Source: Candidatus Nanoarchaeia archaeon
Lineage (GTDB): Archaea > Nanobdellota > Nanobdellia > SCGC-AAA011-G17 > JAGVZF01
Assembly: GCA_035288965.1 (NCBI GenBank)
Contig: DATDYQ010000048.1
Span: forward strand, 1 to 47,666
Direction of reading: 5' to 3'
Length of the DNA: 47,666 bases
Part shown: one piece after another, positions 4,963-46,011 of the stretch
How the letters are laid out: each line of letters opens with the position of its first letter
Numbering within the stretch: the stretch's first letter is position 1
Notes under the pieces: generated by a model
The model's database searches: none
Seen by the model: only the letters and a program-made list of their open reading frames with translations
Told to the model about the DNA's origin: nothing
Position numbers and translations under genes: made by a program

Positions 4963-4964
4963 AA

Positions 4965-7004: not shown

Positions 7005-8059
7005 ACTTTGATCAATTTATAAGAAGCTTAGAAAAGGATTCAAGAGTTGCAATACTTCATGATACTGATCCAGATGGGGTTTGTAGTGCTGTGATTGTTG
7101 CTAAAGCTGTAGAAAAGATAACTGGGAATAAGATTAAATTAAGAGTTCATCAAGATGATAGAACTGGAGATATATTTGATGAAACAATAAAAAAATTAAA
7201 AGAGAATAAGATTAATAGATTGATTATAACTGATAAACCTATTGATTATAGACCGGAAGGTGTTTTAATTGTCGAGAAGTTTGCCAAGGTTTTAATTATA
7301 GATCATCATAAAAAATATACTGATATTAACAATGAAAATATCTGCTTGTTAAAGGAAGGAAGTTATTATCCAAGCAGTAAAATTGCTTTTGATTATTTTT
7401 CAAGATATGTTAATTTAGAAGCTTTAGACTGGTTAGCTGCTGCAGGATTAATAACAGATTATGCTTTTAAATATTGGGGAGAATTTCTTGATAAAGTATT
7501 CAAAAGATATAATATAAAAAAAACTAAAGATATATTTACGAATGAGCTTGGTGAAATTGGAAGCATAATAAAATATGCTGAAGTATATAATTTAGACAAT
7601 GTTCAAGAGATTTTTGATATAATCTATAATGCAAAGAATCCTAGAGATGTCCATAAATCTAATCTAAAAAAATATTATGATAAAGTTAAAATAGAAGTTG
7701 ATAAGGCTGTAAAAGAATTCAATAAAAAGAAGGAGATTCATGGGGATTTAGATTGGTATGAAGTGAAGAGCAAATATCCTTTAACTTCTGTGATTTCTTC
7801 AATAATATCGGCAAAAAATCAAAGCAGAACATTGGTTGTGACACAAAATTTTAATGGAAGATATAATGTAAGTGCAAGAAGACAAGATCAAAAAATAGCT
7901 GTAAATGACATTCTAAGTGAAGCCGTTGTTGGATTTGAAAATGCCTCTGGTGGAGGTCATAAAACTTCTGCGGGTAGTGTTTTTAACACAAATGATTATG
8001 TGGAATTTAAAAAGCGAGTTTTAAATGATTATAAAAAAATTAAAGCTGGAAAATATTAG
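7001..8059 (+). CDS. DHH/DHHA1 family phosphoesterase (RecJ/GAN/NrnA-like)
   Basis: Motifs seen: HDTDPDGVCSA, IIDHHK (the DHH motif) and GGGHKTSAG (DHHA1). ATG 7001 overlaps the mre11 stop (ATGA). The ORF-track start at 6995 is a TTG. Confidence 0.8.
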   Translation: MNFDQFIRSLEKDSRVAILHDTDPDGVCSAVIVAKAVEKITGNKIKLRVHQDDRTGDIFDETIKKLKENKINRLIITDKPIDYRPEGVLIVEKFAKVLIIDHHKKYTDINNENICLLKEGSYYPSSKIAFDYFSRYVNLEALDWLAAAGLITDYAFKYWGEFLDKVFKRYNIKKTKDIFTNELGEIGSIIKYAEVYNLDNVQEIFDIIYNAKNPRDVHKSNLKKYYDKVKIEVDKAVKEFNKKKEIHGDLDWYEVKSKYPLTSVISSIISAKNQSRTLVVTQNFNGRYNVSARRQDQKIAVNDILSEAVVGFENASGGGHKTSAGSVFNTNDYVEFKKRVLNDYKKIKAGKY

Positions 8060-10082
8060 GAGTTATGTGAATCAAGAAATAGAGTTTCCTATAGGGAGTA
8101 TTTTATTAAGTGGGGATATAGGGAGCGGGAAGAGTACAATATTGTTGGCAATTGATTTTGCTTTATTTGGATTACAAAGAGGAAGTTTAGATGGAAATTC
8201 TTTGTTAAGGAATGGGACTAATAAGGGAAGTGTTGAATTAACATTTGATATTGATGGAAAGGAAGTTATAATAAAAAGAAGTTTGAAAAGAGTTAAAGAT
8301 TCAAGCGGGCAAGATCAAGGATATTTAATATACAATGGTAAAAAAGAAGATCTAAGTCCAGTGGAATTAAAACAAAGAGTTTTGGAATTATTCAATTATC
8401 CTCAAGAATTAGTTACAAAAAGTAAATCATTGATTTTTAGATTTACAGTTTATACGCCTCAAGAAGAGATGAAACATATATTGTTAGAAGATAAAGACTC
8501 GCGGTTAGATACTTTAAGAAAGGTTTTTGGTGTTGATAAATATAAAAGGTTAATAGAAAATTCCAATTTATTTGTAAATGCAATTAAAGTAAAGAAAAAA
8601 GAATTTAGCATGTTATTAAGCAGTTATGCTGAATTTAATGAGGAAAAAGAGAAGTTAGGAGAAGATAATAAAAGTATTGAAAGAATTACTGAAAAGTTAA
8701 AATTAGATTTAAAACATTTTGTTGATTTTAGAGAAAGATTAATTATGGAATTAAATAGTGTTGAGGATAATAACAAGAAATTAAATGAATTAAAAACCAA
8801 ATTAAGAGTAAATGAAAGTGGTTTAAATTTGAATATGAATAATTTAAATAATGCAAAAAATGATATGGTTGATTTAAAGAAGAAAATTGATAATTTAGAA
8901 AAAGACGTTTATGATTATTATATAGAAAAGGATACTGATGAAAAAATAAATTTAAAAGAAAATGAGATAAAGAACTTTGAAAGTGAATTAAATGAACTTA
9001 ATTTTAAATTAAATGAAGCTGTAATAAAGAAGAAAAGTTTTGATGAAATTAATAAAAGTATTAATAGTTTAGATATATGTCCATTATGTAAGCAAAAAGT
9101 AAGCGAAGATCACAAACATACTATAATTGATGAGGAAAAGAAAAAAATAAACCAATTTTTAGACAATATTCCCATAATAGATATTAGAATTAATCTAATA
9201 AACAAAGAAAGAGAGAAGTTAAGAAAAGAGATTGATGAGTTAAAGGAAATTAAAAGTAAATATGAATATCATTTATTAAAAAAGAGAGATTTAGAAGATA
9301 AAAGAGAGAGATTTGATAAGCTAAGGAATGATGATATTAAAATAAATAATGAGATAAATAACTTAAAGAAAGATATTGAATTATTAAATATGGAGATTAG
9401 TCAATTTAAAGATATAGAAATAGAATATTCTAGGTTAAAAAGAGAGATAGAAGATATAAGAGAAAAAGAGAAAATTATCGAAATTGATATTAAAAGCAGA
9501 GAGAATAAGATTAAGGATAACAATGAAAGATTAAGTATATTAAAAAAGAACATAGAAAGATTAGAAATAATAAAGAATAATTTAACAAAGTTAAATGAAA
9601 TACAATACTGGATTGATGAAAATTTGATTAATTTGTTTAATACAATGGAGAGACATATAATGTTAAGAGTTCATAACGACTTTTCCAATTTATTTGATAG
9701 GTGGTTTAACATATTAATTGATGATGAGAATTTAAATGTGAAACTTGATGATGAATTTACTCCATTAATTGAACAGAATGGATATAATATTGATTATAAC
9801 TTTCTATCTGGAGGAGAAAAAACAGCCGCTGCTTTAGCTTACAGATTAAGCTTGAATCAAGTTATTAATAATTTAATAAGTGCCATCAAAACAAAAGATT
9901 TATTGATATTGGATGAACCGACAGATGGATTTAGTGAAGATCAATTAGACAGAATAAGAATTTTGTTAGAAGAGATTAATGTAAAACAAATAATAATAGT
10001 AAGTCATGAAAGCAAGATTGAAAGTTTTGTGGAAAATGTGATAAGATTTAATAAAAGAGATCATGTAAGTGAAATCATATAA
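8025..10082 (+). CDS. rad50: Rad50 ATPase (short, 685 aa)
   Basis: Walker A is GDIGSGKST. A long K/E/N-rich coiled coil carries a CPLC zinc hook. The signature motif is LSGGEKTAAALA and Walker B is LLILDEPTDG. Confidence 0.88.
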   Translation: MIIKKLKLENIRSYVNQEIEFPIGSILLSGDIGSGKSTILLAIDFALFGLQRGSLDGNSLLRNGTNKGSVELTFDIDGKEVIIKRSLKRVKDSSGQDQGYLIYNGKKEDLSPVELKQRVLELFNYPQELVTKSKSLIFRFTVYTPQEEMKHILLEDKDSRLDTLRKVFGVDKYKRLIENSNLFVNAIKVKKKEFSMLLSSYAEFNEEKEKLGEDNKSIERITEKLKLDLKHFVDFRERLIMELNSVEDNNKKLNELKTKLRVNESGLNLNMNNLNNAKNDMVDLKKKIDNLEKDVYDYYIEKDTDEKINLKENEIKNFESELNELNFKLNEAVIKKKSFDEINKSINSLDICPLCKQKVSEDHKHTIIDEEKKKINQFLDNIPIIDIRINLINKEREKLRKEIDELKEIKSKYEYHLLKKRDLEDKRERFDKLRNDDIKINNEINNLKKDIELLNMEISQFKDIEIEYSRLKREIEDIREKEKIIEIDIKSRENKIKDNNERLSILKKNIERLEIIKNNLTKLNEIQYWIDENLINLFNTMERHIMLRVHNDFSNLFDRWFNILIDDENLNVKLDDEFTPLIEQNGYNIDYNFLSGGEKTAAALAYRLSLNQVINNLISAIKTKDLLILDEPTDGFSEDQLDRIRILLEEINVKQIIIVSHESKIESFVENVIRFNKRDHVSEII

Positions 10083-15262: not shown

Positions 15263-16765
15263 ATGATGAAGGATAGATTACCAACTAAGTTAAAAACTGG
15301 AACTTTTGTAAATTGGGAAGGTGTAGTTGAAGATATTGATACTCCTTTGCTTAGGGGATTAGATCCAAATCAAGATAATGAAAATTATAAAAAAGAAGTA
15401 AAAAAGACCTTTAAGAATCTAGAATTGGGTCATTTGGGTAATAATATTGTTAGATTATGGACCCGAAATATGGTAGATGTTAATCAGGAGAGATTTATTG
15501 ATAATTTAGTAGAAAGATTGTCTAATCCTTTTATTGATAGAAGTGTAATTGAACAAATTCATATGGGTGTTGAAGAATTAATTGGAAATCCGTCATTTTT
15601 TGGAAGCGTTCAAAAAGGTTTGCATAATCACCATATTGAAATAATAGATATTAAGCAAAGTTTTCTAGCTGGTAACATTGATTTTATTACATTTGAGAGA
15701 GGATCTTTGGAAAGTTATGATATATTAAGAAAAGTTTTATTAAAATCTGACAATAAACTCTTCAGAGATTTAGCAGATATATTTGGTTCATTCCATATTG
15801 TGGGAAATCCCGTTGCTGATTATTATAATATTGTTAATTCTCGTCATCTAAAAATTGTAGGTGATATAAATGGATTTAGATTATATCAAAAAAAAGATTC
15901 TCTTTATGTTGATTCATTAGATAAAAAAAATTTCACAAATGAAGAAAAATTTATTAAAATATGTATGGAGATGAGTGTTCAAAGACAGAAAGCATATAAA
16001 ATATTAGAAGGAAGTTCTGATTTCTTAGAATATATTGCTGCAATGGCTTTATGGGGGAATATAAATAAGTTTACTAAACCTACATTTAATAATGATGAAG
16101 TACTAGATATAAAAGAAGGTTATCATCCGCTTTTGATTTCAAGAAATGGAATTAATTTTAATCCGATTGTTACTCACGATACTCTTTTAACTCCTGATGT
16201 TAAGGTAGTTGCAGTTACGGGACCAAATGCAGCAGGTAAAACTACATATATCAAAGAGCTTGGATTAATATCAAGTTTAGCTCAAAGTGGAAGTTATGTC
16301 TCTGCAAAGATGGCAAATCTTCCTGTACAAAGGAAATTTTTAACTCATTTTGGATCAAAAGATGATATAATGGAAAATTTGTCTTTGTATCAAGCTGAAA
16401 TTCATGAACTAAATGTCTGCCTTTCTAAATTGGAAAAGGGTGTTTTATTTATTTGTGATGAACTCTTTAGAGGAACTGAATCTGGTGAGAATGGAGGAAC
16501 AAGATTACATAAGGCACTTGTGGAATCATTGGTATATGATTATCAGGGAAGAACTTATCTTTCTTCACATTACCATGAATCACTTGCTCAACAAAGAGAT
16601 TTACAGGGAATTAAATTTGCAAGGTTTGGTTTTAATGGAGACGGAAGGCCTTCATATAAGTTACAAAGTGGAATTGATAAGGGGGGATATGCTGTTCAAT
16701 CTGCAATTGATGCTGGATTAGATAAGAAAGTTGTGAAAAGATTGAATGGTAATGGAAAGTTATAG
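15263..16765 (+). CDS. MutS-related ATPase (MutS domain V only)
   Basis: Walker A is VTGPNAAGKTTYIKELG and Walker B is LFICDELFRGTE. The later SSHYHE matches the MutS ABC ATPase core. I see no recognisable mismatch-binding domain. Confidence 0.7.
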   Translation: MMKDRLPTKLKTGTFVNWEGVVEDIDTPLLRGLDPNQDNENYKKEVKKTFKNLELGHLGNNIVRLWTRNMVDVNQERFIDNLVERLSNPFIDRSVIEQIHMGVEELIGNPSFFGSVQKGLHNHHIEIIDIKQSFLAGNIDFITFERGSLESYDILRKVLLKSDNKLFRDLADIFGSFHIVGNPVADYYNIVNSRHLKIVGDINGFRLYQKKDSLYVDSLDKKNFTNEEKFIKICMEMSVQRQKAYKILEGSSDFLEYIAAMALWGNINKFTKPTFNNDEVLDIKEGYHPLLISRNGINFNPIVTHDTLLTPDVKVVAVTGPNAAGKTTYIKELGLISSLAQSGSYVSAKMANLPVQRKFLTHFGSKDDIMENLSLYQAEIHELNVCLSKLEKGVLFICDELFRGTESGENGGTRLHKALVESLVYDYQGRTYLSSHYHESLAQQRDLQGIKFARFGFNGDGRPSYKLQSGIDKGGYAVQSAIDAGLDKKVVKRLNGNGKL

Positions 16766-17671: not shown

Positions 17672-17857
17672 ATGGAAGATTATTATCAGGTGCTGTTAGA
17701 TTATGTTAAGCCAGATGATGATAATGTTAGAAAACATTCTCTCCTTTTAGATAATCCAATAACTAAAGAAACTAGAATTCCTGATTTAGAGCAGTTAGTA
17801 ATAGATAAAGAAACTAAATCTTTGTTTCCAAAAAAAAATGAAAAGAAGATTTCTTAA
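17672..17857 (+). CDS. small ORF (61 aa); possibly the frameshifted N-terminus of the downstream transglutaminase-like protein
   Basis: It sits at the canonical distance from a promoter motif. It runs through an A9 homopolymer (17830-17838) that also contains the ATG of the 805-aa ORF in another frame. Confidence 0.3.
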   Translation: MEDYYQVLLDYVKPDDDNVRKHSLLLDNPITKETRIPDLEQLVIDKETKSLFPKKNEKKIS

Positions 17858-20255
17858 TGCTTTTGAGATGTATTTAACACGTTTTCCATTTTACAGTCAA
17901 GAGTTAATACATACTGAAATGGAATTGTCTAAAAAAGAATTTATAAACTTTACAAATAAAATCGATAGGGAAGATAGTACAAGAGCGTTGCTTAACTTTT
18001 GTGGTTATGATGTGGAAGGATTGGATTCAGCTAGAGATATATTTGAATTTGAACTTAAAAAATGGCAAGATAATAAAGATTATTATGTTCCTGTAAGAGA
18101 TTTCTTTGGGCCTTTTATTCCAGAGAATATTATTAATCTAGATGATCCTTATTCAGAAGAATTAATGAATCCGTTAAGACATAGCAGAGATTTTAGTCGT
18201 TATTTAATTTCAATTGCTGCTCTGCCATTTTCTTTAATGGCTCTTTTGCCTGGAGCCTTGTTATCTAAATTTTTTAATAATAATGATACGTCAGAACCTT
18301 TAGATAAAAGAGAAACTGACTTTAATACTAGGGATAAAAGTGATAGTTCTAGCTTTTTTGATAATCTTAAATATAAACTAGCTGATTGGTTAGAATGGTT
18401 TAAAGATATGAATTTAGTTGCTACATATAATAATGATTCAGATTTATTTTTTGTAGAACATTTGATATCAGATTTTCATTCTTCTAATGATAGAATAAAA
18501 GATTTATATAGAAATGGAGTGGCACACAAGGCTTCTAGTGTTTTAACTTCGTCAACAGATATTGAAGATGATGGTTTAGAGCTGGAATTTATTAATGGAA
18601 GTGCTCCCATAGACAAATCAAATATACCACTTCCGATGTTTTACTCTTTATTTGAAACTAGAGATAATGTTGCTAAGATGTACAGATGTAATTGGAATTT
18701 AGATGATACAATAAATAGTCAACTTAGTGCAAATCTTAGACTACCTGAAAAATTCATAAATAGAATTGATGAACTAGTTAAAGGAGAAAAATCAATTGAT
18801 AAAATAAAAGATGAAGTTAAAGAGATGTTTATTTATAAAAAGCCTAAAAAATATAAGGGATTAAGCAGATTTGAATCGGCTGCAGTTTCTATGAATGGTG
18901 TTTGTCAGGATGTTAATTTTTTTCTTTGGCATATTTTAAGGAAAAAAGGAATTCCTAGCTATCTTGCTGTGGGCTTGCAGGGAAAAAATGGAGGAATTAC
19001 CAGAGATTCTGGACATGCAAAAGTTATAGCTTATGACAAAGATAAAAAAGAATGGGGGGAATATGATTCAACTCCAAGAAAAGAAGATGTTGAAATATAT
19101 GAAATGAAAAGAGGATCAAAACAACCAAGCATAGATATTGCTTTCTTGAGAAAAGGTTTGGGTTATTTAAGTTATCCTATCTATATGGGATTAAGTTTTG
19201 GAATTGGAGCTATGGTAACTGGAATAAGATTTACCAAACAAAAAACATTAGAAGGTATGATTATGGCTGAAAAGAGGATTTGTAAAAATGTCTTAGATGA
19301 TTTAGAAGAACATCTTAATAGATTTGATGATAATCTAAATAATGTTGATAAAAATCAAATGTTGTTATTTGAAGAGAAAGAAAAAATCAAAGATGAAACT
19401 ATAGAAAATTCCAGAGATATCATGAATATGTCCAATATTCCGATAATTACTAATGATTCTGAAACAAATCATGAAATTGGAAAGATAGAAAAACTGTTTA
19501 ATCCTTTTAAAATTCTTTATCAGATTGATGAACTAAAATATGTTGTTGATACTCTCCCAGAATATGTTAAAAGGTATCATTATTTTGTTATGGCTGAAAA
19601 TGTTTTTAATGATGTTTTAATAACTAAAGGAGAATTATTTCCATTTACACCAAAAAGACCTGATGAATGGAAAAATGTTATGTTAAATTTATTTAATACC
19701 TTTGCCGAAATTAAAGAGCCTCCACATCCTTTAGAAACAAGACAGCCACGAAGATATTATTATAAAGCTAAAAGGGGAATGTCTGTTAAAATAGATGATG
19801 AAATAACAACTTGGGTAAAAAAACCAAGATTCATTAAAGATTTACATTCTGATGAAAAAAATGTTTTTATAGATGATAGCCATAACAATAATCTGGAAAC
19901 TGTGAAGAACATCTATGAAGGAATGACTGATTATAATGAATGGTATATGGTGACTCATGAAAACGTGGATATGAAACCAGATGTCAAACATTACACATAT
20001 TCTCCTCAAATATTATCTTTTGATAAAATGTGGGCTGTTTCTTCTGAAGAATATTGGACATTATTTGGAAATATAATAAAAAAACATATAAAAAATAGTG
20101 AATCTGTTTTTAGATATATGTGGGAAGATTTAGTTAAAATGCATAATGAGTATAGGAAAGGTAATGGTATGTATTCTTTGACAATCAATTATAACAATGG
20201 CAATATGTTTACAGAAACAGATGAAAAATATGTTGAATTAGAAGATCCATGGTAA
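17838..20255 (+). CDS. membrane protein with transglutaminase-like Cys-His-Asp core
   Basis: The core GVCQDVNFFLWHILRKKGIPSYLAVG...SGHAKVIAY...WGEYDSTP matches the transglutaminase-like cysteine protease pattern. TM segments flank it: YLISIAALPFSLMALLPGALL and YPIYMGLSFGIGAMVTGI. Confidence 0.65.
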   Translation: MKRRFLNAFEMYLTRFPFYSQELIHTEMELSKKEFINFTNKIDREDSTRALLNFCGYDVEGLDSARDIFEFELKKWQDNKDYYVPVRDFFGPFIPENIINLDDPYSEELMNPLRHSRDFSRYLISIAALPFSLMALLPGALLSKFFNNNDTSEPLDKRETDFNTRDKSDSSSFFDNLKYKLADWLEWFKDMNLVATYNNDSDLFFVEHLISDFHSSNDRIKDLYRNGVAHKASSVLTSSTDIEDDGLELEFINGSAPIDKSNIPLPMFYSLFETRDNVAKMYRCNWNLDDTINSQLSANLRLPEKFINRIDELVKGEKSIDKIKDEVKEMFIYKKPKKYKGLSRFESAAVSMNGVCQDVNFFLWHILRKKGIPSYLAVGLQGKNGGITRDSGHAKVIAYDKDKKEWGEYDSTPRKEDVEIYEMKRGSKQPSIDIAFLRKGLGYLSYPIYMGLSFGIGAMVTGIRFTKQKTLEGMIMAEKRICKNVLDDLEEHLNRFDDNLNNVDKNQMLLFEEKEKIKDETIENSRDIMNMSNIPIITNDSETNHEIGKIEKLFNPFKILYQIDELKYVVDTLPEYVKRYHYFVMAENVFNDVLITKGELFPFTPKRPDEWKNVMLNLFNTFAEIKEPPHPLETRQPRRYYYKAKRGMSVKIDDEITTWVKKPRFIKDLHSDEKNVFIDDSHNNNLETVKNIYEGMTDYNEWYMVTHENVDMKPDVKHYTYSPQILSFDKMWAVSSEEYWTLFGNIIKKHIKNSESVFRYMWEDLVKMHNEYRKGNGMYSLTINYNNGNMFTETDEKYVELEDPW

Positions 20256-20377: not shown

Positions 20378-21895
20378 ATGAGAAACAAAGAATACGAAGA
20401 AATGCAAACAACTATTCTTTTATTAGAAGAGGAAGTAAATCGACTACGAGAGCCTCCTTACAAAGCAGGAACTGTTTTACAACTTGGAAAAAAAACAGTA
20501 CGACTTATTGTAGATGGAGGTAGTTTTATCGAAGTTGCTATGCCAAGTGATAAAGGTTTAAGTGCAGAAATTAGGAAGAAATTAAGATCAGGAGCAAGAG
20601 TTATTTTGAATGGAGCTGGAGCTATTGTTGATTATTCTGAATTTGATAAGACCATATGTGGAGAAATTACCACTGTTGATGAAATTAACTGTGATAGATT
20701 GAGAGTTAATGTAAGAGGAGAACCAAGAATGGTTTTAAACACTCTAAAAGATGTTAAGGTAGGAGATGAGGTTCAATTGGATTTATCTGGATTACTTGTT
20801 ACTGAAAGATTTGATAGAAAAAAAACACGTTATGTTTTGGAAAAAATTCCGCAAGCACCTTGGAATAATATTGGCGGATTGGAAAAAGCAATTTGTGATA
20901 TTAGGGGAGAAATTGAAGAACCTTTTTTACACAGAGATATCTTTAATAGATATGGACAAGGTCCTGCTAAGGGAATTTTGCTTTACGGACCACCCGGATG
21001 TGGAAAAACAATGATTGCAAAATCTATTGCATATAATCTTGCAAAATTAACAGGCAATGGAGCAGGACATTTTATAAGTGTGAAAGGTCCTGAGATCCTG
21101 GATAAATTTGTAGGAAATTCTGAAGCAAATATCAGAAGAATTTATGGTGCTGCACGTGATGAAGCTAAAGAAAGTAATGTACCAACAGTTGTTTTCATTG
21201 ATGAGGCAGAATCAATCATGAAAGCAAGAGGTAGTGGAATCTCGACTGATGTTTATGACTCTATTGTTCCGCAATTTCTTGCAGAAATGAGTGGTTTAAA
21301 TGGGGGGGATTACGAAGTAGTCACTGTATTGGCCACTAACAGAGAGGACATAATTGATCCTGCAATTTTAAGAGATGGTAGGGTGGATATAAAAATTCGA
21401 ATTCCTAGACCAGACAGAAAGGGAGCTGAACAAATTTTTAAAATATATTTAAAAGATAGACCTATGCGTGGGTTAATGGCTTCTACCAAAGGTCTTGTTG
21501 AAGAAATTGTTGAAAGAATCTACGATGACGAAACAGCAGCATATAATATAATTTCTCCGACTGGAATTATTGGGAGTTTTGGTTATCAAAATTTAATAAG
21601 TGGTGCAATGATAAAAGGAATTATTGATAGGGGATGTAAATCTGCAATTCGAAGAGAAATTGAAGGCGGAAAGAAAGGGTTAGAAAAAGAAGATTTGTAT
21701 CGTGCTGTTAAAGAAAAATTTGATGAGAATTCCGAATTCACGCAAGCACTTGTAAGGGACGATTGGGAAGTTGTTTTTGGTGGAGAAGGAAAGCAATTAT
21801 ACGAAATGTATCGTCATGGACATTTACATTTACAAAAGGCTGATGAACAAAGTGGGAATGATGTTAAACAAAATGAAGGGAGGCAAAGTAAATGA
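20378..21895 (+). CDS. AAA+ unfoldase with N-terminal coiled coil and two OB-like domains; resembles Mpa/ARC more than PAN; no HbYX C-terminus
   Basis: The coiled coil EEMQTTILLLEEEVNRLREPP is followed by OB-like segments. Walker A is GPPGCGKT and Walker B is VVFIDEAES, with NREDIIDPAILRDGRVD downstream. The post-AAA segment is SGAMIKGIIDRGCKSAI...DDWEVV. The protein ends ...NEGRQSK. Confidence 0.85.
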   Translation: MRNKEYEEMQTTILLLEEEVNRLREPPYKAGTVLQLGKKTVRLIVDGGSFIEVAMPSDKGLSAEIRKKLRSGARVILNGAGAIVDYSEFDKTICGEITTVDEINCDRLRVNVRGEPRMVLNTLKDVKVGDEVQLDLSGLLVTERFDRKKTRYVLEKIPQAPWNNIGGLEKAICDIRGEIEEPFLHRDIFNRYGQGPAKGILLYGPPGCGKTMIAKSIAYNLAKLTGNGAGHFISVKGPEILDKFVGNSEANIRRIYGAARDEAKESNVPTVVFIDEAESIMKARGSGISTDVYDSIVPQFLAEMSGLNGGDYEVVTVLATNREDIIDPAILRDGRVDIKIRIPRPDRKGAEQIFKIYLKDRPMRGLMASTKGLVEEIVERIYDDETAAYNIISPTGIIGSFGYQNLISGAMIKGIIDRGCKSAIRREIEGGKKGLEKEDLYRAVKEKFDENSEFTQALVRDDWEVVFGGEGKQLYEMYRHGHLHLQKADEQSGNDVKQNEGRQSK

Positions 21896-22353
21896 GAATG
21901 TTTGGAAGAAAAGAAACTGCTGCTGTTAAACCATTTGCGAAGCAAGAAGTTTTAGAGAATGAGGTTGTAAAACCGATTATTGCAACTGCAAGACCTGGCT
22001 TAACTGATGAGTCTTCTGCTTTAATGAGAAGACTTCCTTCAAATTATGCAGGAAGAACTGTAAGAGATGTACTAAGCTATATGGTTGATTTCAATGAAAG
22101 CAGATCTGCAGAAGCAACAAGTCGATATGGTAAAAAAGTTAAAGATAGTGAAGCTGCTATAATAACAAGCTTGAAGAATGAACTTGGAGCTGCAGGAAGT
22201 GTTGTTGTTATTAATGGTAAAAATGCAAAATTAACTGACAGAATAGACCAATATTTAGTTGATAGAACTAAAAATGTCAGCGGAAGAAATATTCAATATC
22301 AAGAACTTGAGATAGAAGTTTCTGCAGTTCAGCAAGGCGGTTACAGGTTTTAA
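21892..22353 (+). CDS. ubiquitin-like beta-grasp (ThiS/MoaD/SAMP-like) protein with a ~50-aa N-terminal extension, ending GG-YRF
   Basis: The C-terminal part ...GSVVVINGKNAKLTDRIDQYLVD...ELEIEVSAVQQGG|YRF follows the ThiS/MoaD-type layout. The GG is at aa 149-150 (nt 22336-22341), followed by three residues. ATGA overlap with the ATPase gene, and GGGAGG upstream. Confidence 0.6.
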   Translation: MRMFGRKETAAVKPFAKQEVLENEVVKPIIATARPGLTDESSALMRRLPSNYAGRTVRDVLSYMVDFNESRSAEATSRYGKKVKDSEAAIITSLKNELGAAGSVVVINGKNAKLTDRIDQYLVDRTKNVSGRNIQYQELEIEVSAVQQGGYRF

Positions 22354-22396
22354 TTTCTTGCAGATGTAGAAGAATCTTAATCGGTTTGAGAAAGAA

Positions 22397-23398
22397 ATGG
22401 CAGACTTAGATATACTTTTAACTGGGGAAGAGCCAGAAGAAAAATTAGAAGGAGAAAAAAATTTTGGATTAAATGAATTATATATTTCTAAATATGCTTA
22501 TGAAAAAGCCTTTAGATATGCAGAACTTGTTATGCGAGAGAGGAGCGATAGTGTTGAAATCGGGGGATTTTTAACTACACAAAAAGGTGCCAATGACAGG
22601 GTTGCAAGAGATGCATTCCTTGCTCGTGATCAAGAAGTTAGTCGGGGATTTTATAAATTAAGTGCAGAAGATGTTTTGAAGGCTAAGAAAGAGATTGAAG
22701 ATAAAGAACAAAAAATTATTGGGTGGTGGCATAGTCATGGAAGATTTGATGCTTATCATTCTGAAACTGATAGCAAAAATCAGATGGTTTTGCTTAATCA
22801 AATTTCCACTTCTAATTATATTCCCTTTCCTAAAGAAAGAGATTATGATAGTTTGCAAAGCAGAATAGAAGGTAATAAAATAATCTTTTGGGATCCTGAA
22901 GATCCTATCAAGAAATTTGAACTTGAGTTAAAAGAAGAAAATCCTGAATTGGTAGCAAAGAGATTGAAGATTTTAGAGGATAAAAAAATTGGATTTGCTT
23001 ATAGTTTTGTTGTTAATAATCATAGATGGTTGAGAAAAAGAGTTCCTTATTTCGAAATTGCAACAAGAGATTTATGTGTAGACTGTATTAATGCAAATGA
23101 TGTGAGTGTGCCTGTTGGATACAAGATTTTTGATGAAGGGGAATATAAAATTGATGATGAACAATTGATTGCAGAAATTAATGAGCGGGTTCATGTTTTT
23201 GGTGAAGGTCATAAAAATAAAAAATATCTATTGCCTTCAACTTTTGAAGAGCAACGGATGGCTGGAACGCTTTCTAAACCAGATTTCGGATCGATATCTA
23301 AGGTAAGAAAACGTAAATACTACAGAACTGATGAAGGAAGTTTTAAAGGTAAAAAGAAAGAAGAGCAAAAAGACGATTCTAAAGAGGTAGGAAGATGA
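22397..23398 (+). CDS. JAB/MPN+ (JAMM) metalloprotease with ~200-aa C-terminal extension
   Basis: An exact JAMM motif, HSHGRFDAYHSETD (H-x-H-x7-S-x2-D), lies at nt 22730-22771. The upstream Glu is in SVEIGGFL. Confidence 0.85.
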   Translation: MADLDILLTGEEPEEKLEGEKNFGLNELYISKYAYEKAFRYAELVMRERSDSVEIGGFLTTQKGANDRVARDAFLARDQEVSRGFYKLSAEDVLKAKKEIEDKEQKIIGWWHSHGRFDAYHSETDSKNQMVLLNQISTSNYIPFPKERDYDSLQSRIEGNKIIFWDPEDPIKKFELELKEENPELVAKRLKILEDKKIGFAYSFVVNNHRWLRKRVPYFEIATRDLCVDCINANDVSVPVGYKIFDEGEYKIDDEQLIAEINERVHVFGEGHKNKKYLLPSTFEEQRMAGTLSKPDFGSISKVRKRKYYRTDEGSFKGKKKEEQKDDSKEVGR

Positions 23399-24078
23399 AA
23401 TATAAAATAGGACAGAAAGTTTTTATAAAAAGAGCAAATGGGGAGTTGGACCATAAACCAAAAGGAAGTTATTATTATGGGGGTAGTTTCAGGGATCTTC
23501 CGTTAGGATCAAAGGGAACTATTAATGAAATTGTCAATGAAAATATGATTGGTCTAAGAGTGGAAAAACAAAATTATGGTTATAGGTGGTATGTGCATCC
23601 CAGTGAGTTACCTACACCTGAAGAAATAAATTTACATGAAAGAAAGGAACAGGAAAAGATTAATTCTCAGTTAAAAAGTATTCTGTTAGCTGATGAACCA
23701 ATTGTTAAAATGTCGATAACAAGACAAAAATCCTTTGATCCGAAGTTTAATGCAAGAGAAGAGTTTGTTGTTTGGATAAGGGAAGAATTTCCGGAATTAA
23801 AAAAATATTCAAAGAACAAAAGAAAATATTCTGATTTAATAAATAGAAAAAAGGAAGTTATGGAAGGAGCAAAGAAAGCTTATGAACACGCACTTAAAAC
23901 TACTGACAGTTGTGTTAGGGTTGATTTTATTGAAAGCTTTAAGGAGCTTAATAAGCGTATGGGAAATTTTGCTAATGGGCTAGATGAGTTCGTTACCTTT
24001 ATCGAGTATGTTTCTGCTAATCTGATAAACAAAAAAGATAGACATTATGGAACAACTTTAGCAAGAAGAATAAAATGA
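23395..24078 (+). CDS. unrecognised family, paralogue 1 (SH3/KOW-like N-domain plus helical module with H-x7-C)
   Basis: 227 aa. It shares LLADEP..K....SFDPKFNAREEFVVWIREEFPEL...EHALKTTDSC...IEYVSANL...RHYGT with ORFs 25490 and 26121. ATGA overlaps at both ends. Confidence 0.6.
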   Translation: MKYKIGQKVFIKRANGELDHKPKGSYYYGGSFRDLPLGSKGTINEIVNENMIGLRVEKQNYGYRWYVHPSELPTPEEINLHERKEQEKINSQLKSILLADEPIVKMSITRQKSFDPKFNAREEFVVWIREEFPELKKYSKNKRKYSDLINRKKEVMEGAKKAYEHALKTTDSCVRVDFIESFKELNKRMGNFANGLDEFVTFIEYVSANLINKKDRHYGTTLARRIK

Positions 24079-25493
24079 CGAATGACAAAAATATACGATA
24101 TGACAGACAGCAAAGAATTCAAAACTGGCAGCAAGAAAGATTAGCAAATGCAAAGATAGCAATTATTGGATCTGGACAATTAGCCCAATTTACAGCAGCT
24201 TCACTTGTCGCTCTTGGTGTAGGAAATGTAGAAATATATTGTAATGAAAAAGTTAATGGAAAGGAATTCTTAACTTTTGATAGTAATGGAGATGATAAGT
24301 CTAGCTTACTCGAAAAGAAGTTGCATGAAATGAATCCTGATGCTAATGTTAGAAGTTTTAAAATGGAAAGTGATGATAATATACTTTCTTTAGTTGATAA
24401 TCCTGATATAATTTTAGAGTTGACAAATTCATCTGAATTAAAAGAAAAAATTATGGAATATGCAAATGCACATAATGTAAAAATAATTTCTGCATCAACC
24501 GGAAAAACAGGAGGAGAATTATATTTTGTTAAACCGGGAGATGATTATTCGAGTGCAAAACTTACAAAATACGATGGAGAAAAACAGAGAACATTCACTA
24601 GCGAAATTTTTGGTGGTATGATTACAGAAGAAGTTAGAAAGATTTTGATGCCTCTTAAAGAAGGAGAAGATGCTGTTAAGAATTTGGCTTATGATGCGAC
24701 TGCTGAAAAGAGATTCAGTAAAGAAGGAGATTTTGATGCACAGCCTTTTGAAGATTTATCACAAAAAAGAATTTTAATTATCGGAGCAGGAGCTCTTGGG
24801 AATTTTGTTGCTTTGGGAGCTACGCTTGAGGGAATCGGAAAAATTGATATTTTAGATTTTGATGAAGTTGAACCTCATAATCTAAACAGACAAATTATGT
24901 TTTACGATGCTGTTGGAAAGAAAAAATCTTTAGCACTAGCAGAAAAGATCAAACAAATTAACCCTGACATCGAAGTTAAAGGATTGGTTGAAAAATTAGA
25001 TGAGAATACAACTTATTTTTTAAACAATAACCCAGACTTAATTTTGGATTGTGTTGATAACTTTGCAACTAGAGCTATAACAAATTACTTTGCTGTTCAT
25101 TATGGAATTCCGTTAGTAAGTGGTGGAACAAATTCAAATTCTGGGCAAGTTGTTGTTTATGAGCCTGGACAGAGTGCCTGTTTAGAATGTAAACTTGGTG
25201 TTGAACAAGCATTAGGGGTAGCTTTACAAGGAAGCAAGTGCACAGACGCACCTAATCCAAGTGTAATCATGACAAATGAAATTATTGGAGGAATGATGGT
25301 TGGAGAAGCTTTGAAAGTTTTAGATAAAGGATATGGAACTTCAGTTTCAAGAATTTTGAAATATGATTCAACAGCTCCTGTTAGGGGTGGTTTAATCGGA
25401 GCTAGTAATGCATGTGAATGTTCAAGGGGAGAAATTAAGGAATGGCTGCAAGGGGTTAAAGAGATGTTTTCTTTAGCTAAGGATGAAAAATGA
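24075..25493 (+). CDS. E1-like activating enzyme with tandem ThiF/MoeB-type domains (degenerate N-terminal, active C-terminal)
   Basis: Domain 1 is RYDRQ...KIAIIGSGQLAQ...GVGNVEIYCNEKV and lacks the DxD...NLNRQ motif. Domain 2 is RILIIGAGALGN...IDILDFDEVEPHNLNRQ...LDCVDNFATR...CLEC...GSKCTDAP...CEC. Confidence 0.85.
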   Translation: MTNDKNIRYDRQQRIQNWQQERLANAKIAIIGSGQLAQFTAASLVALGVGNVEIYCNEKVNGKEFLTFDSNGDDKSSLLEKKLHEMNPDANVRSFKMESDDNILSLVDNPDIILELTNSSELKEKIMEYANAHNVKIISASTGKTGGELYFVKPGDDYSSAKLTKYDGEKQRTFTSEIFGGMITEEVRKILMPLKEGEDAVKNLAYDATAEKRFSKEGDFDAQPFEDLSQKRILIIGAGALGNFVALGATLEGIGKIDILDFDEVEPHNLNRQIMFYDAVGKKKSLALAEKIKQINPDIEVKGLVEKLDENTTYFLNNNPDLILDCVDNFATRAITNYFAVHYGIPLVSGGTNSNSGQVVVYEPGQSACLECKLGVEQALGVALQGSKCTDAPNPSVIMTNEIIGGMMVGEALKVLDKGYGTSVSRILKYDSTAPVRGGLIGASNACECSRGEIKEWLQGVKEMFSLAKDEK

Positions 25494-26116
25494 CTTTTGA
25501 TATTGGAGAAAAAGTGAAGATTGTAAAAACAGAGGGATTTAATAGAGGATGTTATAGAAATGGACTTTCTTTATTCCAAATTCATCTAGGAACTAAAGGA
25601 GTGATTACAAATATACAAAATAATAAAGATGCTTTTATTTATGTTAGAATAGGGGGAGAGGATTATTCTTTTCTACCAACTGAATTAGCTTATTGTGAAG
25701 AAGGAAAAAGTAAGCATGAAAAGAAAAAATTGGAGAGTTTGCTTATTGCAGAAGAGCCTGTTGATAAAATTAAAAAAGAAAAATCCTTTGATCCGAAGTT
25801 TAATGCAAGAGAAGAGTTTGTTGTTTGGGTAAGGGAAGAATTTCCGGAATTAATGTATCAAAAGGGACATTATGAAATACCTTCTAAAAGAAGAAGAGAA
25901 GTTTATGAAGCTGCAATAGCTGCATGTCGGCATGGTATTGAAACAACTGGAGCTTGTGTGCAAAGGACATTTCAAAATAATTTTAGTAATTTAATGACGG
26001 ATGGTTGCTCAGATCTTGAAGTAAGAATATATAGCATAGTATCTTTAATAGAATGTGTTTCTGCTAATCTGGGAAACGAAAATAGACATTATGGAACAAT
26101 TTTAGCAAGAAAATAA
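25490..26116 (+). CDS. unrecognised family, paralogue 2 (SH3/KOW-like N-domain plus helical module with H-x7-C)
   Basis: 208 aa. Motifs: LLIAEEPVDKIKKEKSFDPKFNAREEFVVWVREEFPEL...RHGIETTGAC...IECVSANLGNENRHYGT. ATGA overlap with the E1 gene. Confidence 0.6.
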   Translation: MTFDIGEKVKIVKTEGFNRGCYRNGLSLFQIHLGTKGVITNIQNNKDAFIYVRIGGEDYSFLPTELAYCEEGKSKHEKKKLESLLIAEEPVDKIKKEKSFDPKFNAREEFVVWVREEFPELMYQKGHYEIPSKRRREVYEAAIAACRHGIETTGACVQRTFQNNFSNLMTDGCSDLEVRIYSIVSLIECVSANLGNENRHYGTILARK

Positions 26117-26120
26117 TAAA

Positions 26121-26858
26121 ATGACTAATGATAAACTAGATGAATTATTAAACGGGAAAGAGCCAGAAGAAAGATTAGAAGTGAATGTTAATCGGGAATT
26201 CAAGCCTAAAATTAATGTGAGAGAAGAATTTGTATTGTGGATCCGTGAACAGTTTCCGGAACTTGGAGAATATATAAAAAAAGGAGGCATATATAAAAGT
26301 TTAGAAACTCGTGAGGAGGAGATTTATCAAGCTGCTCTGGGAGCAGTAAATCATGGTTTAACCTCTACTGAAGATTGTGCAAGCACACGTTTACATTCTG
26401 GATGGGTTGAATTTGAAAAAGGATTTGGGGTAAAGGGAAATCCTAGAAGAAGAGCAAAGAGTTTAGGAAGTTTTGTTAAGGCATTAGAAGACCTCTCAAT
26501 TAGCTTAGGTGGAGACAAACATTATACGAGGGCCGGAAAATTTTTAAATGGTAAACCTTATAGTGATTATTTGTATAGAAATCTGCGAGCTTTTGTTTAT
26601 ATGGTGGGAGAGGAAAATGGCAAGGATACAAAATACCTAGTTTTTGATGTAAAACAAAAATTTGAAGGCAATAATATCCCTGTTTTGATAGGTGAACTTC
26701 GTGGATTATCAAAATGGGATTTTGAAAGTTTAGGGAGAATTGCCTCTAAATTTCAGGGAACTGAGATAGATTTTATTGAAAAGGTTGATAAACTTGTTCC
26801 ACAAAAAGGATCATATGACTATTCACATGGATATTATGGCAGTGTTAAGTATAAGTGA
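26121..26858 (+). CDS. unrecognised family, paralogue 3 (helical module first, then a distinct ~110-aa C-terminal domain)
   Basis: 245 aa. Motifs: LLNGKEPEERLEVNVNREFKPKINVREEFVLWIREQFPEL...NHGLTSTEDC...LEDLSISLGGDKHYT. It starts MTNDK, as the E1 does. Confidence 0.6.
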   Translation: MTNDKLDELLNGKEPEERLEVNVNREFKPKINVREEFVLWIREQFPELGEYIKKGGIYKSLETREEEIYQAALGAVNHGLTSTEDCASTRLHSGWVEFEKGFGVKGNPRRRAKSLGSFVKALEDLSISLGGDKHYTRAGKFLNGKPYSDYLYRNLRAFVYMVGEENGKDTKYLVFDVKQKFEGNNIPVLIGELRGLSKWDFESLGRIASKFQGTEIDFIEKVDKLVPQKGSYDYSHGYYGSVKYK

Positions 26859-45917: not shown

Positions 45918-46011
45918 TTGATATAAAATTTACTTAATAAAATAATATAAAAATGTTTTGATTTATAGTGATTTGTTAGTATTTATAAAGTTTTATATCT
46001 TAATAATCTCC

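Follow-up and report, generated by a model that had tools for sequence, protein, structure and literature searches.

A putative ubiquitin-like modifier precursor encoded beside an AAA+ unfoldase in DPANN archaea

The gene described here, from a Candidatus Nanoarchaeia archaeon, encodes a previously unnamed ubiquitin-like protein (Ubl) of DPANN archaea, and its operon context points to an undescribed protein-tagging pathway, in which the gene product is probably the precursor of a protein modifier in a DPANN-archaeal conjugation system. To our knowledge, Ubl conjugation outside eukaryotes has been described for only a few systems, namely the SAMPs, the Caldiarchaeum/Asgard operons, Bil, Bub, CBASS and TtuB, and a full-text literature search, the coverage of which was incomplete, yielded no description of this operon. 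As far as searches show, it represents the first operon-level coupling of a beta-grasp tag with an AAA+ unfoldase. The Ubl family is unannotated and comes from a very abundant yet poorly understood archaeal group. With its four to five small proteins, the system may provide a compact and tractable model for the recruitment of an unfoldase by a covalent tag and for an initiation region supplied by the tag.

The window, that is, the whole 47,666-nt stretch of DNA that was analysed (contig DATDYQ010000048.1), contains the following features of the operon:

20378..21895, + strand: Mpa/ARC-like AAA+ unfoldase of 505 aa, assigned by NCBIfam TIGR03689 and PDB matches
21892..22353, + strand: gene of the Ubl precursor (153 aa and a stop codon), with translational coupling to the ATPase gene
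21892..21972, + strand: N-terminal extension of the Ubl (residues 1-27), variable, rich in K/E/T/S/Q and predicted to be disordered
21973..22341, + strand: beta-grasp core of the Ubl (residues 28-150), predicted by an AlphaFold2 model and Foldseek
22336..22341, + strand: Gly149-Gly150, the predicted mature C-terminus and adenylation/conjugation site, from conservation across 88 members
22342..22350, + strand: Tyr-Arg-Phe tail, predicted to be removed, with variable-length tails in homologues
22397..23398, + strand: JAMM/MPN+ metalloprotease of 333 aa, identified by Pfam, NCBIfam and its motif and predicted to process the precursor and to act in deconjugation
23395..24078, + strand: accessory protein 'u227', characterised by alignment A3 and AlphaFold
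24075..25493, + strand: E1-like activating enzyme of 472 aa, matching Pfam ThiF in two stretches (9.9e-70)
25490..26116, + strand: u227 paralogue of 208 aa, 46% identical to u227
26121..26858, + strand: third u227 paralogue of 245 aa, with the helical domain in common with u227

The original prediction, which proposed the Ubl gene, was correct in treating the ORF as real: it has 37 close homologues, and an exhaustive profile search recovered a family of 95 clusters at 50% identity, lacking annotation and found mostly in MAGs of Nanoarchaeota, Woesearchaeota and Pacearchaeota. No model for the family exists in Pfam or NCBIfam. The start codon overlaps the stop codon of the ATPase gene (ATGA, 21892-21895) and lies 8 nt downstream of a Shine-Dalgarno-like GGGAGG (21878-21883), and the ATPase and Ubl genes overlap by the same 4 nt in six loci (the window, L003, L006, L007, L008 and L010). 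The broad alignment of the family offered no sufficiently conserved stretch, and distant loci were therefore sought with a degenerate DNA pattern scan, which returned mostly chance matches in bacteria together with informative archaeal loci.

The most prominent feature of the family is the glycine pair near the C-terminus, which in the window reads IEVSAVQQGG-YRF-TAA. GG is found at the aligned positions in 83 of the 88 diverse members, and G149, G150 and N108 are the only columns conserved in at least 90% of these 88 members. The residues that follow are variable. All 35 complete close homologues carry a tail of 2-10 aa after GG, the first residue being Y or F in 31 of them, while across the whole family the tails span 0-163 aa, with two members stopping exactly at GG and several (e.g. 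P0101, P0109 and P0114) carrying long C-terminal fusions. This range of tails, including the fusions, is the pattern expected of a Ubl precursor, and the earlier reading of a GG end followed by a removable YRF tail stands, with the removal itself being predicted. It is highly improbable that the protein is never conjugated and serves as a small beta-grasp adaptor or regulator in non-covalent association with the ATPase, its GG being structural. Such a role would agree with the lack of sequence homology to known modifiers and with the translational coupling to the ATPase gene, suggestive of co-production in stoichiometric amounts; nevertheless, no feature of the family is better conserved than GG, the sequence after it is hypervariable, and an E1 and a JAMM protease with intact active sites are encoded in every locus, even in those lacking an ATPase (L011, L093 and L094).

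The AlphaFold2 model of the Ubl (alignment A1) has a mean pLDDT of 77, rising to 87-95 in the core blocks, and comprises b1 (29-35), b2 (44-48), a1 (57-78), a2 (85-99), b3/b4 (104-112) and a terminal hairpin (123-144) that leads to AVQQGG. Helix a1 accommodates a private insert of ~16 aa (residues ~67-83), which is common to no homologue. The structure prediction that had been suggested as a check thus returned a beta-grasp, spanning approximately residues 28-150 instead of the last ~100 aa to which the Ubl domain had been assigned. Almost all of the top 50 PDB matches found by Foldseek are ubiquitin-like (SUMO, Atg8, ISG15, UBL or RBD domains), with a TM to target of 0.5-0.64, although the E-values are weak (best match, E 0.079 and probability 0.94; none <=1e-3), and the support for the fold is moderate, not decisive. 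Membership of the ThiS/MoaD/SAMP group, whose layout the original prediction had recognised in the protein, was not borne out by sequence. Pfam ThiS (PF02597) reached only E 0.14 in two of 36 members and Urm1 only E 0.086 in one of 36, neither of which is significant; a comparison of the 88-sequence profile with manually entered SAMP1 and MoaD sequences by hhalign gave ~1% probability; and the family profile and phmmer found nothing significant among PDB sequences. Taken together, Pfam, NCBIfam, PADLOC, phmmer, the PDB profile search and hhalign revealed no significant link of the Ubl to ThiS, MoaD, SAMP or ubiquitin. Its place in the ubiquitin-like superfamily is indicated by the predicted beta-grasp, the conserved GG and the association with an E1 and a protease.

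This association is highly conserved. The order ATPase-Ubl-(accessory)-JAMM-E1 is kept in all loci long enough to judge, in each of which a double-ThiF E1 and a JAMM share the operon with the Ubl, and the three genes persist together in the very distant members L011, L093 and L095. In the window, the JAMM gene starts 43 nt downstream of the Ubl gene, and its product begins with an LDxLLxxEEPEE motif. The protein matches Pfam Prok-JAB above cutoff (2.7e-8), its best named match is the NCBIfam desampylase (9.2e-8), and the zinc site E..HxHx7SxxD, read from the translation, is intact (E54, H112-S-H114-x7-S122-x-x-D125). JAMM orthologues are encoded in every sufficiently long locus. The intact catalytic motif, the conserved operon and the known precedents are in keeping with a processing of the tail by this enzyme, as had been suggested.

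The E1 is a single chain in which a degenerate N-terminal ThiF domain (IAD) precedes an intact C-terminal one (AAD), the two being 27% identical (E 1e-19), so that inactive and active adenylation domains are combined in one pseudo-dimer, as in canonical E1s. The N-terminal half lacks the NLNRQ Arg (Arg finger), the Mg-binding DxxDN Asp and CxxC, while the AAD carries CxxC...CxC and a short crossover loop with a Cys; the crossover, between CLEC and PSVIMTNE, is ~25 aa long as read from the sequence and contains no inserted CYS domain. The pairing of a degenerate and an intact half is also seen in BilD and eukaryotic E1s (PMC10557695). A minimal single-chain IAD-AAD E1 in archaea lacking an E2 bears on the origin of the eukaryote-type E1 architecture. 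The best PDB matches of the enzyme are MoeB and ThiF, followed by SAE2, UBA5 and UBA1.

Since the active half is closest by sequence to ThiF and MoeB (NCBIfam TIGR02356, 190 bits; PDB 1jw9/1zud), the Ubl might alternatively be a sulfur carrier of the ThiS/MoaD/CysO/QbsE type, trimmed by the JAMM and converted by the E1, via an acyl-adenylate, to a thiocarboxylate for a biosynthetic thiolation of tRNA or a cofactor, with no protein tag being formed. A short, MoeB-like crossover loop without a CYS domain and the lack of a detectable E2 would be in keeping with this role. Trimming of carriers ending in GG-xx by an operon-encoded JAMM is known from the bacterial systems QbsE/QbsD and CysO/Mec+, whose carriers are small beta-grasp proteins that are subsequently activated by ThiF/MoeB-type enzymes, and archaeal SAMPs function both as protein modifiers and as sulfur carriers. 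However, the QbsE and CysO operons also encode the biosynthetic enzymes that accept the sulfur, and a rhodanese domain is usually fused to their E1, whereas the E1 described here has no rhodanese, and no sulfur-transfer gene (ThiG, MoaE, CysM or NcsA-type) was found in the operon across ~15 loci. Moreover, all ThiF/MoeB NCBIfam scores of the E1 are below their cutoffs, the conserved partner is a protein unfoldase that comes from two different families, and the long fusions after GG (P0101, P0109 and P0114) suit modifier precursors. Among the enzymes discussed in PMC10557695, the IAD-AAD pseudo-dimer marks conjugating E1s, while those of sulfur pathways are homodimers. The sulfur-carrier role is consequently considered improbable, and a protein modifier remains the preferred reading.

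A modifier could also be deployed in conflict, with the Ubl being placed on invader proteins and the ATPase serving as effector or regulator, as in systems of the Bil or CBASS-Cap2 kind. The combination of a Ubl, an IAD-AAD E1 and JAMM pre-processing corresponds to BilA, BilD and BilC, the last of which is a JAMM DUB that pre-processes BilA and exposes its terminal Gly (PMC10557695). PADLOC 'E1-E2' (Cap2) models match the E1 and IetA and TRIP13 models match the ATPase, the accessory paralogues number from one to five per locus, a variability typical of conflict systems, and L093 sits among many small unannotated ORFs. On the other hand, the PADLOC matches are at domain level only, that of the E1 being through its ThiF domain. 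Bil includes an E2 (BilB) and an E1 with a ~80-aa CYS domain, in contrast to the short crossover loop found here and the lack of any detectable E2, and it occurs as a sporadic defence island, whereas the system of the window lies on the chromosome, occurs widely within one archaeal clade and is associated with an unfoldase. No relatives were found among 2.9 million viral contigs, and the GC content of the operon (33%) equals that of the adjacent RNA polymerase operon; a viral or mobile origin was rejected on these grounds. The loci are collinear and diverge gradually across Nanoarchaeota, Woesearchaeota and Pacearchaeota MAGs, and the flanking genes are housekeeping ones, e.g. those encoding ribosomal protein L16 and RNAP. 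An anti-virus function thus appears quite improbable.

The AAA+ unfoldase begins with a short N-terminal coiled coil (~20 aa) that terminates in PPY, followed by OB region(s), a single AAA module and a C-terminal region; in this arrangement of coiled coil, OB and single AAA it resembles Mpa more than PAN or Cdc48. The best model is NCBIfam TIGR03689 (pup_AAA), with 378 bits over residues 8-477, yet below the equivalog cutoff of 504.75, compared with 174-184 bits for PAN models and ~155 bits for a single Cdc48/VAT domain. The best single-stretch PDB match is Mpa of M. tuberculosis (7px9/5kwa, 268-273 bits), whose structures align to residues 68-474 or 125-474. The claim of an Mpa-like ATPase upstream of the Ubl is thereby confirmed. 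In four Woesearchaeota/Nanoarchaeia loci, however, the Mpa-like protein is replaced, directly upstream of the Ubl, by a ClpX-like ATPase (NF003745, 273-303 bits), while in the distant member L092 this position is once more taken by an Mpa-like ATPase, and the N-tail of the Ubl is ~53 aa long. Both families that occupy the slot are of bacterial type. This exchange in the same slot argues strongly for a functional coupling between the tag and the unfoldase. The C-termini of eight ATPase orthologues are variable and have no GQYL/HbYX docking motif and no penultimate Tyr; because a proteasome-docking motif is lacking, a degradative outcome is without support.

An Mpa-like ATPase next to a small tag with a disordered N-terminus resembles the Pup-Mpa (ARC) system of Actinobacteria, and the original prediction drew an analogy to Pup, which folds onto the coiled coil of Mpa, in speculating on a hybrid tag with a GG end for conjugation and an N-terminal handle for unfoldase engagement. 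Pup is an intrinsically disordered protein of ~64 aa that ends in GGQ or GGE and is ligated by PafA/Dop. The tag of the window, unlike Pup, is predicted to be a folded beta-grasp, ends in GG-YRF and is accompanied by an E1, with no PafA/Dop-like gene in the operon (Pfam), and the ATPase, unlike Mpa, does not reach the pup_AAA cutoff, contains a far shorter coiled coil and ends without GQYL. Given also that the sequence of the N-tail is not conserved, the Pup-like reading was rejected.

The disordered handle proved to be shorter than the ~50 aa originally assigned to it. Residues 1 to ~23-27 are indeed variable and modelled with low confidence (pLDDT <50 for residues 1-23), while residues 28-50 (PIIATARPGL...ALMRRLP) show some of the highest conservation in the protein and are modelled as strands b1 and b2 (pLDDT 87-88); mean pairwise identity is 15-17% for residues 1-27 versus 59% for residues 28-66. 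Among close homologues the tail is 24-38 aa long, most commonly 26-27, and contains 13.8% Lys, with 21% hydrophobic residues compared with 32% in the core. AAA+ pores require an initiation region of roughly 25 aa, and the N-tails of all ten Mpa-linked Ubls measure 25-53 aa, while those of ClpX-linked Ubls measure 12-20 aa and two distant members with tails of 6 and 8 aa lack an ATPase neighbour. A strict correlation between tail length and ATPase adjacency was rejected, since it holds only in part: long tails are likewise seen where the Ubl gene has no ATPase gene beside it, namely in L094 (31 aa), the P0078 contig (~41 aa) and L095 (~82 aa), which makes the link a tendency, and one that is confounded by phylogeny.

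A role of the N-tail as an unfoldase initiation region is plausible and consistent with these comparisons of sequence. It is also possible, if on balance unlikely, that the protein is a genuine modifier whose tail is unrelated to the unfoldase, being a SUMO-like arm with chain-forming lysines or a neutral linker, and that the ATPase recognises the beta-grasp or the accessory proteins. SUMO has a flexible N-terminal arm of ~15-20 aa that bears chain-forming Lys, and SUMO-like domains lead the fold search; the Lys content of the tails, the three long tails lacking an ATPase neighbour and the ATPase coiled coil of merely ~20 aa are compatible with such an arrangement. The lengths of the Mpa-linked tails, roughly that of an AAA+ initiation region, the shorter tails of ClpX-linked Ubls and the shortest ones where no ATPase is adjacent argue against it, as does the number of Lys, which ranges from 0 to 8 per tail and is only 0-2 in some. 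The fullest version of the preferred reading is that DPANN archaea possess, in addition to the ubiquitin-26S and Pup-Mpa types, a third, independently assembled tag-and-unfold pathway, in which a JAMM-trimmed orphan tag is attached by an E2-less E1 and its N-tail feeds conjugates to bacterial-type unfoldases, Mpa- or ClpX-like and interchangeable between lineages, for remodelling or degradation; as a whole, this scenario is speculative and rather unlikely.

Judging from homology and precedent, the operon JAMM would trim the short tail (YRF in the window) and expose Gly150, which the pseudo-dimeric E1 would adenylate, with a thioester probably forming on the Cys of the crossover loop, and transfer of the Ubl to target lysines would then proceed, as it does in archaeal sampylation, with no recognisable E2. 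We hypothesise that the co-translated AAA+ unfoldase, Mpa-like in the window and ClpX-like in the sister branch, acts on the conjugates, and that the disordered, Lys-rich N-tail of ~25 aa is most likely the flexible end engaged by its pore, although the tail might instead provide acceptor lysines for chain formation. The JAMM may also undo conjugation.

The proposed pathway shares with sampylation (SAMP1-3/UbaA/HvJAMM1 of Haloferax volcanii) an archaeal beta-grasp protein ending in GG, a ThiF/MoeB-type E1, a JAMM and the absence of a recognisable E2. It differs in that the Ubl has no sequence similarity to SAMP, ThiS or MoaD and has a core of ~120 aa as well as an additional helix, a hairpin at the end and a disordered N-tail, that the E1 is a single-chain IAD-AAD pseudo-dimer instead of a homodimer, and that the genes form one operon with an AAA+ unfoldase. 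A precursor Ubl with residues after GG and its own JAMM is likewise encoded in the Caldiarchaeum subterraneum/Asgard operon, which however specifies a true ubiquitin, an E2 and a RING E3 and has no unfoldase gene, whereas the window has an orphan Ubl, no detected E2 or E3 and an unfoldase. SUMO, which is trimmed by Cys proteases and conjugated via Ubc9, is similar as a beta-grasp precursor with GG plus a tail and a flexible N-arm and provides the top structural matches, but has no sequence relationship to the Ubl. With QbsE/QbsD and CysO/Mec+, the system shares JAMM-trimmed residues after GG, while differing in the presence of an unfoldase and the lack of a sulfur acceptor or rhodanese. The removal of such residues by an operon-encoded JAMM has been established experimentally for the CsUb precursor, from which CsRpn11 removes 9 aa after GG (PMC6043591), and JAMM trimming is likewise established for BilA by BilC (PMC10557695).

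No E2 or E3 is detectable, and UQ_con and Prok-E2 have no match among the operon proteins of the window and related loci. Two accessory families were considered as E2 candidates and rejected. The 'X' family, which is widespread and follows the Ubl in other loci, has no invariant Cys. The u227 paralogues do have an invariant His and Cys (His165 and Cys173 of u227, alignment A3), located in the all-alpha domain, but the AlphaFold model of u227 (pLDDT 78.5), instead of a UBC fold, shows an SH3-like barrel followed by a long helix, a disordered linker and a novel all-alpha domain. No match to u227 was found in Pfam, NCBIfam or PADLOC, and the Foldseek matches (L21e, chromo-barrel and Mind-bomb repeat) were confined to the barrel at the N-terminus, with none for the helical domain, which is limited to the window's own clade. 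These lineage-specific proteins, u227 paralogues in the window and the 'X' family elsewhere, may be specificity factors. The third paralogue carries the motif LDELLNGKEPEE at its N-terminus, its C-terminal extension is distinct, and its orthologues occur in L001, L004 and L005 (~283 bits).

The gene under study very probably encodes the precursor of a ubiquitin-like protein (Ubl). Its 153-aa ORF (21892-22353, +) ends in ...QELEIEVSAVQQGG-YRF, followed by a TAA stop codon, and its start codon and the TGA that ends the preceding gene run into each other as ATGA (21892-21895), with GGGAGG located 8 nt 5' of the start; the overlap and the GGGAGG support the annotated start and hence the N-terminal extension of the protein. 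The gene belongs to a co-directional, densely packed block (20378-26858), the junctions of which are 4-nt overlaps or small gaps.

Genes of the block
20378-21895, +, AAA ATPase
21892-22353, +, Ubl
22397-23398, +, JAMM metalloprotease
23395-24078, +, unknown protein of 227 aa (u227)
24075-25493, +, E1
25490-26116, +, unknown protein of 208 aa (u208)
26121-26858, +, unknown protein of 245 aa (u245)

A word-indexed search recovered 37 Ubl homologues (38-99 % identity), which lack any Pfam domain and are named only 'hypothetical protein', and 95 clusters at 50 % identity (E <= 1e-3) emerged when 1.84 billion representatives were searched exhaustively with a profile. The genome matches come from MAGs, apart from one single-cell genome, and carry the labels Nanoarchaeota, Woesearchaeota, Pacearchaeota or Nanoarchaeia, except for one MAG labelled Methanosarcinales. 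Mean pairwise identity in the close family is approximately 60 % for residues 28-66 and 84-150 and 15-17 % for residues 1-27. Only N108, G149 and G150 reach at least 90 % conservation in the 88-sequence alignment of the whole family; the GG is found at the aligned position in 83 members, and the sequence that follows it is hypervariable. In close relatives, the post-GG tail comprises 2-10 aa, and 31 of 35 such tails start with Y or F; two family members (P0093 and P0113) have no tail, and three (P0101, P0109 and P0114) carry 70-160 aa of unrelated sequence after the GG. An invariant diglycine with a seemingly disposable extension is the pattern expected of Ubl precursors. The GG with a short tail after it, as noted in the original prediction, recurs in the close relatives. 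The conservation of the GG, together with the ever-present E1 and JAMM, contradicts the view of the Ubl as a non-conjugated adaptor, which is very improbable.

The fold of the Ubl, predicted by AlphaFold2 from a 36-sequence alignment (mean pLDDT 77, pTM 0.65, residues 1-23 below 50), comprises strands b1 (29-35) and b2 (44-48), a long helix (57-78), a second helix (85-99), strands b3/b4 (104-112) and a terminal hairpin (123-144) leading into AVQQGG. Foldseek returned no PDB match at E <= 1e-3 (best 0.079, probability 0.94); nevertheless, its top 50 consist almost exclusively of beta-grasp domains, with TM scores normalized to the target of 0.5-0.64, and include the Nip45 SUMO-like domain, SUMO, Atg8/GABARAP, ISG15, the USP7 and PLIC UBLs, the PI3K and Raf RBDs and the archaeal ThiS/MoaD-like Mth1743. 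A beta-grasp fold, as expected in the original prediction, is predicted with moderate support. The ThiS/MoaD/SAMP layout also proposed there can be read by eye, in '..G(R/K)TV.DVL.Y' at the start of helix 1 (compare 'DATVGDALDAL' of SAMP1) and in the strand 'V.(I/V)NG..', but neither resemblance is statistically significant and sequence methods connect the Ubl family to no known Ubl. The long helix of the window protein contains a private insert of approximately 16 aa (FNESRSAEATSRYGKK, residues ~67-83, pLDDT 58-69), found elsewhere only in the 99 %-identical P0002.

The disordered N-terminal handle was initially placed in the first ~50 residues, but residues 28-50 (PIIATARPGL...ALMRRLP) rank with the best-conserved segments in the family and form the predicted first beta-hairpin of the grasp (pLDDT 87-88). 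The actual extension comprises residues 1-27; in close relatives it spans 24-38 aa (most commonly 26-27) and is variable in sequence, rich in K/E/T/S/Q (Lys 13.8 %) and contains 21 % hydrophobic residues, versus 32 % in the core. Across the whole family its length ranges from 3 to 82 aa (median 24), being 25-53 aa in the 10 loci with an upstream Mpa-like ATPase, 12-20 aa where the upstream ATPase is ClpX-like, and 6, 8, 31, ~41 and ~82 aa where no ATPase is adjacent. The pore of AAA+ enzymes needs an initiation segment of some minimum length, and Pup is threaded N-terminus first. In all Mpa-linked tags the tail is of sufficient length for such a segment; the converse fails, as long tails also occur without an adjacent ATPase, and the sample is small and confounded by phylogeny. 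A Pup-like helix of the tail, induced by binding to the coiled coil of the ATPase, is not supported, since the tail sequence is not conserved and the coiled coil is short, measuring only ~20 aa (..ILLLQEELERL..PPY) in an alignment of eight orthologues. Alternatively, the tail may be a SUMO-like flexible arm with acceptor lysines.

The Mpa-like character of the adjacent ATPase was correctly anticipated, as among the NCBIfam models it scores highest with pup_AAA (Mpa/ARC), reaching 378 bits over residues 8-477 but not the cutoff of 504.75; PAN models score 174-184 bits. Among PDB sequences, Mpa is matched in one stretch of 350-400 residues (268-273 bits), whereas Cdc48/VAT match domain by domain only (~155 bits each). 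The ATPase C-termini are variable and, in the eight aligned orthologues, lack an HbYX or GQYL motif for docking to the 20S proteasome. An Mpa-like ATPase again lies upstream of the distant family member at locus L092 (246 bits to pup_AAA). In four loci labelled Woesearchaeota or Nanoarchaeia, the position immediately upstream of the Ubl is instead occupied by a ClpX-like AAA+ protein.

ClpX-like ATPases upstream of the Ubl
L031, 3617-4735, -
L037, 2538-3737, -
L053, 664-1812, +
L055, 3813-4961, -

These proteins (372-399 aa; Pfam AAA_2 and ClpB_D2-small) score 273-303 bits against the NCBIfam ClpX model NF003745 (cutoff 359), lack the N-terminal zinc domain and, in all but L031, keep an MGF tripeptide at the position of the ClpP-docking IGF loop of ClpX. 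To our knowledge, ClpX is not expected in archaea. The occurrence of two unrelated unfoldase families in one operon slot is a non-orthologous displacement and a strong argument that an unfoldase is required by the Ubl system. In L011, the locus of a higher-GC distant member, an M42 (TET-type) aminopeptidase-like gene (1154-2419) takes the place of the ATPase just upstream of the Ubl, which is another tie to proteolysis.

The JAMM neighbour, likewise proposed at the outset, matches Pfam Prok-JAB (2.7e-8) and has an intact motif (E54...H112-x-H114-x7-S122-x-x-D125). The E1 contains two paralogous ThiF domains (27 % identity, E 1e-19): the NLNRQ arginine, the DxxDN aspartate and the CxxC are retained in the C-terminal half, which also has a short crossover loop carrying a Cys, but have been lost from the N-terminal half. 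The protein is a single-chain pseudo-dimer of inactive and active adenylation domains (IAD-AAD), an arrangement described for BilD and eukaryotic E1s (PMC10557695). Unlike those enzymes, the window E1 has no inserted CYS domain, and an E2 is not detectable in any operon protein. In L093, two overlapping genes share the E1 between them, one IAD-like (7730-8392, 220 aa) and one AAD (8389-9168, 259 aa), a split that recalls the heterodimeric eukaryotic E1s; the Ubl of this locus (4766-5131) ends exactly at GG. A function of the Ubl as a sulfur carrier is unlikely: although the nearest sequence relatives of the E1 are ThiF and MoeB, and sulfur carriers trimmed by JAMM proteases are known, approximately 15 loci contain neither a rhodanese domain nor a partner for sulfur transfer, and the partner that stays constant is an unfoldase.

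The mechanism that we consider most likely, and reasonably probable as a whole, is a five-step chain of trimming, activation, E2-less transfer, unfolding and recycling. The JAMM would first remove the tail after the GG, for which experimental precedents exist in the removal of 9 aa after the GG of CsUb by CsRpn11 (PMC6043591) and the pre-processing of BilA by BilC (PMC10557695). The IAD-AAD E1 would then adenylate, and perhaps thioester, Gly150, and accessory proteins would guide the E2-independent transfer of the Ubl. The AAA+ unfoldase would act on the conjugates, plausibly from the N-tail of the tag, which the JAMM would recycle. Systems combining Ubl, E1 and JAMM are already known, and neither the operon nor the family was found described in full-text literature, the coverage of which was incomplete; what is new is the orphan family of Ubls, an archaeal E1 that unites IAD and AAD in a single chain and lacks an E2 partner, and the linkage, within one operon, of a Ubl to interchangeable bacterial-type unfoldases.

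The order ATPase-Ubl-(accessory)-JAMM-(accessory)-E1 is maintained in every locus long enough to judge (L001-L010, from different MAGs), with the ATPase/Ubl ATGA overlap in six loci. A core of Ubl, JAMM, double-ThiF E1 and X, an accessory family of 380-632 aa without an invariant Cys that follows the Ubl in most clades, is retained in the very distant L011, L093 (E1 split) and L095. In the clade of the window, X is replaced by the mutually paralogous u227, u208 and u245, which share only the N-terminal barrel with it; this family is clade-specific, with 1-5 copies per locus (window, L001, L004 and L005). The architecture that AlphaFold predicts for the u227 family runs from an SH3-like barrel through a long helix and a disordered linker to an all-alpha domain. 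Foldseek recognizes only the barrel, and comparison with Pfam, NCBIfam, PADLOC and PDB folds gave nothing for the all-alpha domain; its invariant residues are F114, P116, N119, R121, E122, E123, W127, H165 and C173, of which the His/Cys pair could be catalytic. Between the MAG contigs of L001 (12249-14010) and L005 (12162-16197), the Ubl, ATPase and JAMM proteins do not differ at all, but the E1 and one of the accessory paralogues are missing from L001, with the junction between two paralogous accessory genes, suggesting recombinational deletion or assembly collapse.

A short linear motif, (D/E)LDxLLxx(E)EPEx(K), lies at the very start of almost all JAMM orthologues encoded in the operons (also in L001, L003, L004, L006-L008, L010, L018, L060, L031 and L037) and appears again in the three accessory paralogues, within linkers or at N-termini. 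It resembles a docking peptide common to these proteins, which may all bind the same partner, be it the E1, the Ubl or the ATPase.

Occurrences of the motif in the window
22397-22445, JAMM N-terminus
23680-23709, u227 aa 96-105
25739-25768, u208 aa 84-93
26139-26174, u245 aa 7-18

The resemblance of the parts to Bil and the variable accessory copy number would suit a defence system, but this is quite improbable given the missing E2, a search for viral relatives that found none, the core-genome composition of the operon, the housekeeping genes on its flanks and the spread of the system over the whole clade. The GC content of the block (~33 %, 24-34 % over the window) equals that of the RNA polymerase operon. 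Outside the block, the window is ordinary archaeal chromosome, including the rpoH-B''-B'-A'-A'' operon, NusA-KH, S7, GuaA, RNase J, Mre11/Rad50-like genes and three tRNAs.

The gene that immediately precedes the ATPase encodes an 805-aa protein (17838-20255) with a transglutaminase-core domain (Pfam 1.3e-5) and is not kept at that position in related loci. Also outside the operon are a 500-aa protein (15263-16765) whose only MutS part is domain V, an unusually long ThyX homologue (39883-41787, 634 aa), in which the Thy1 match spans only part of the model, and an ORF with a LAGLIDADG domain (45958-47184); inteins or homing endonucleases could be the source of the latter two.
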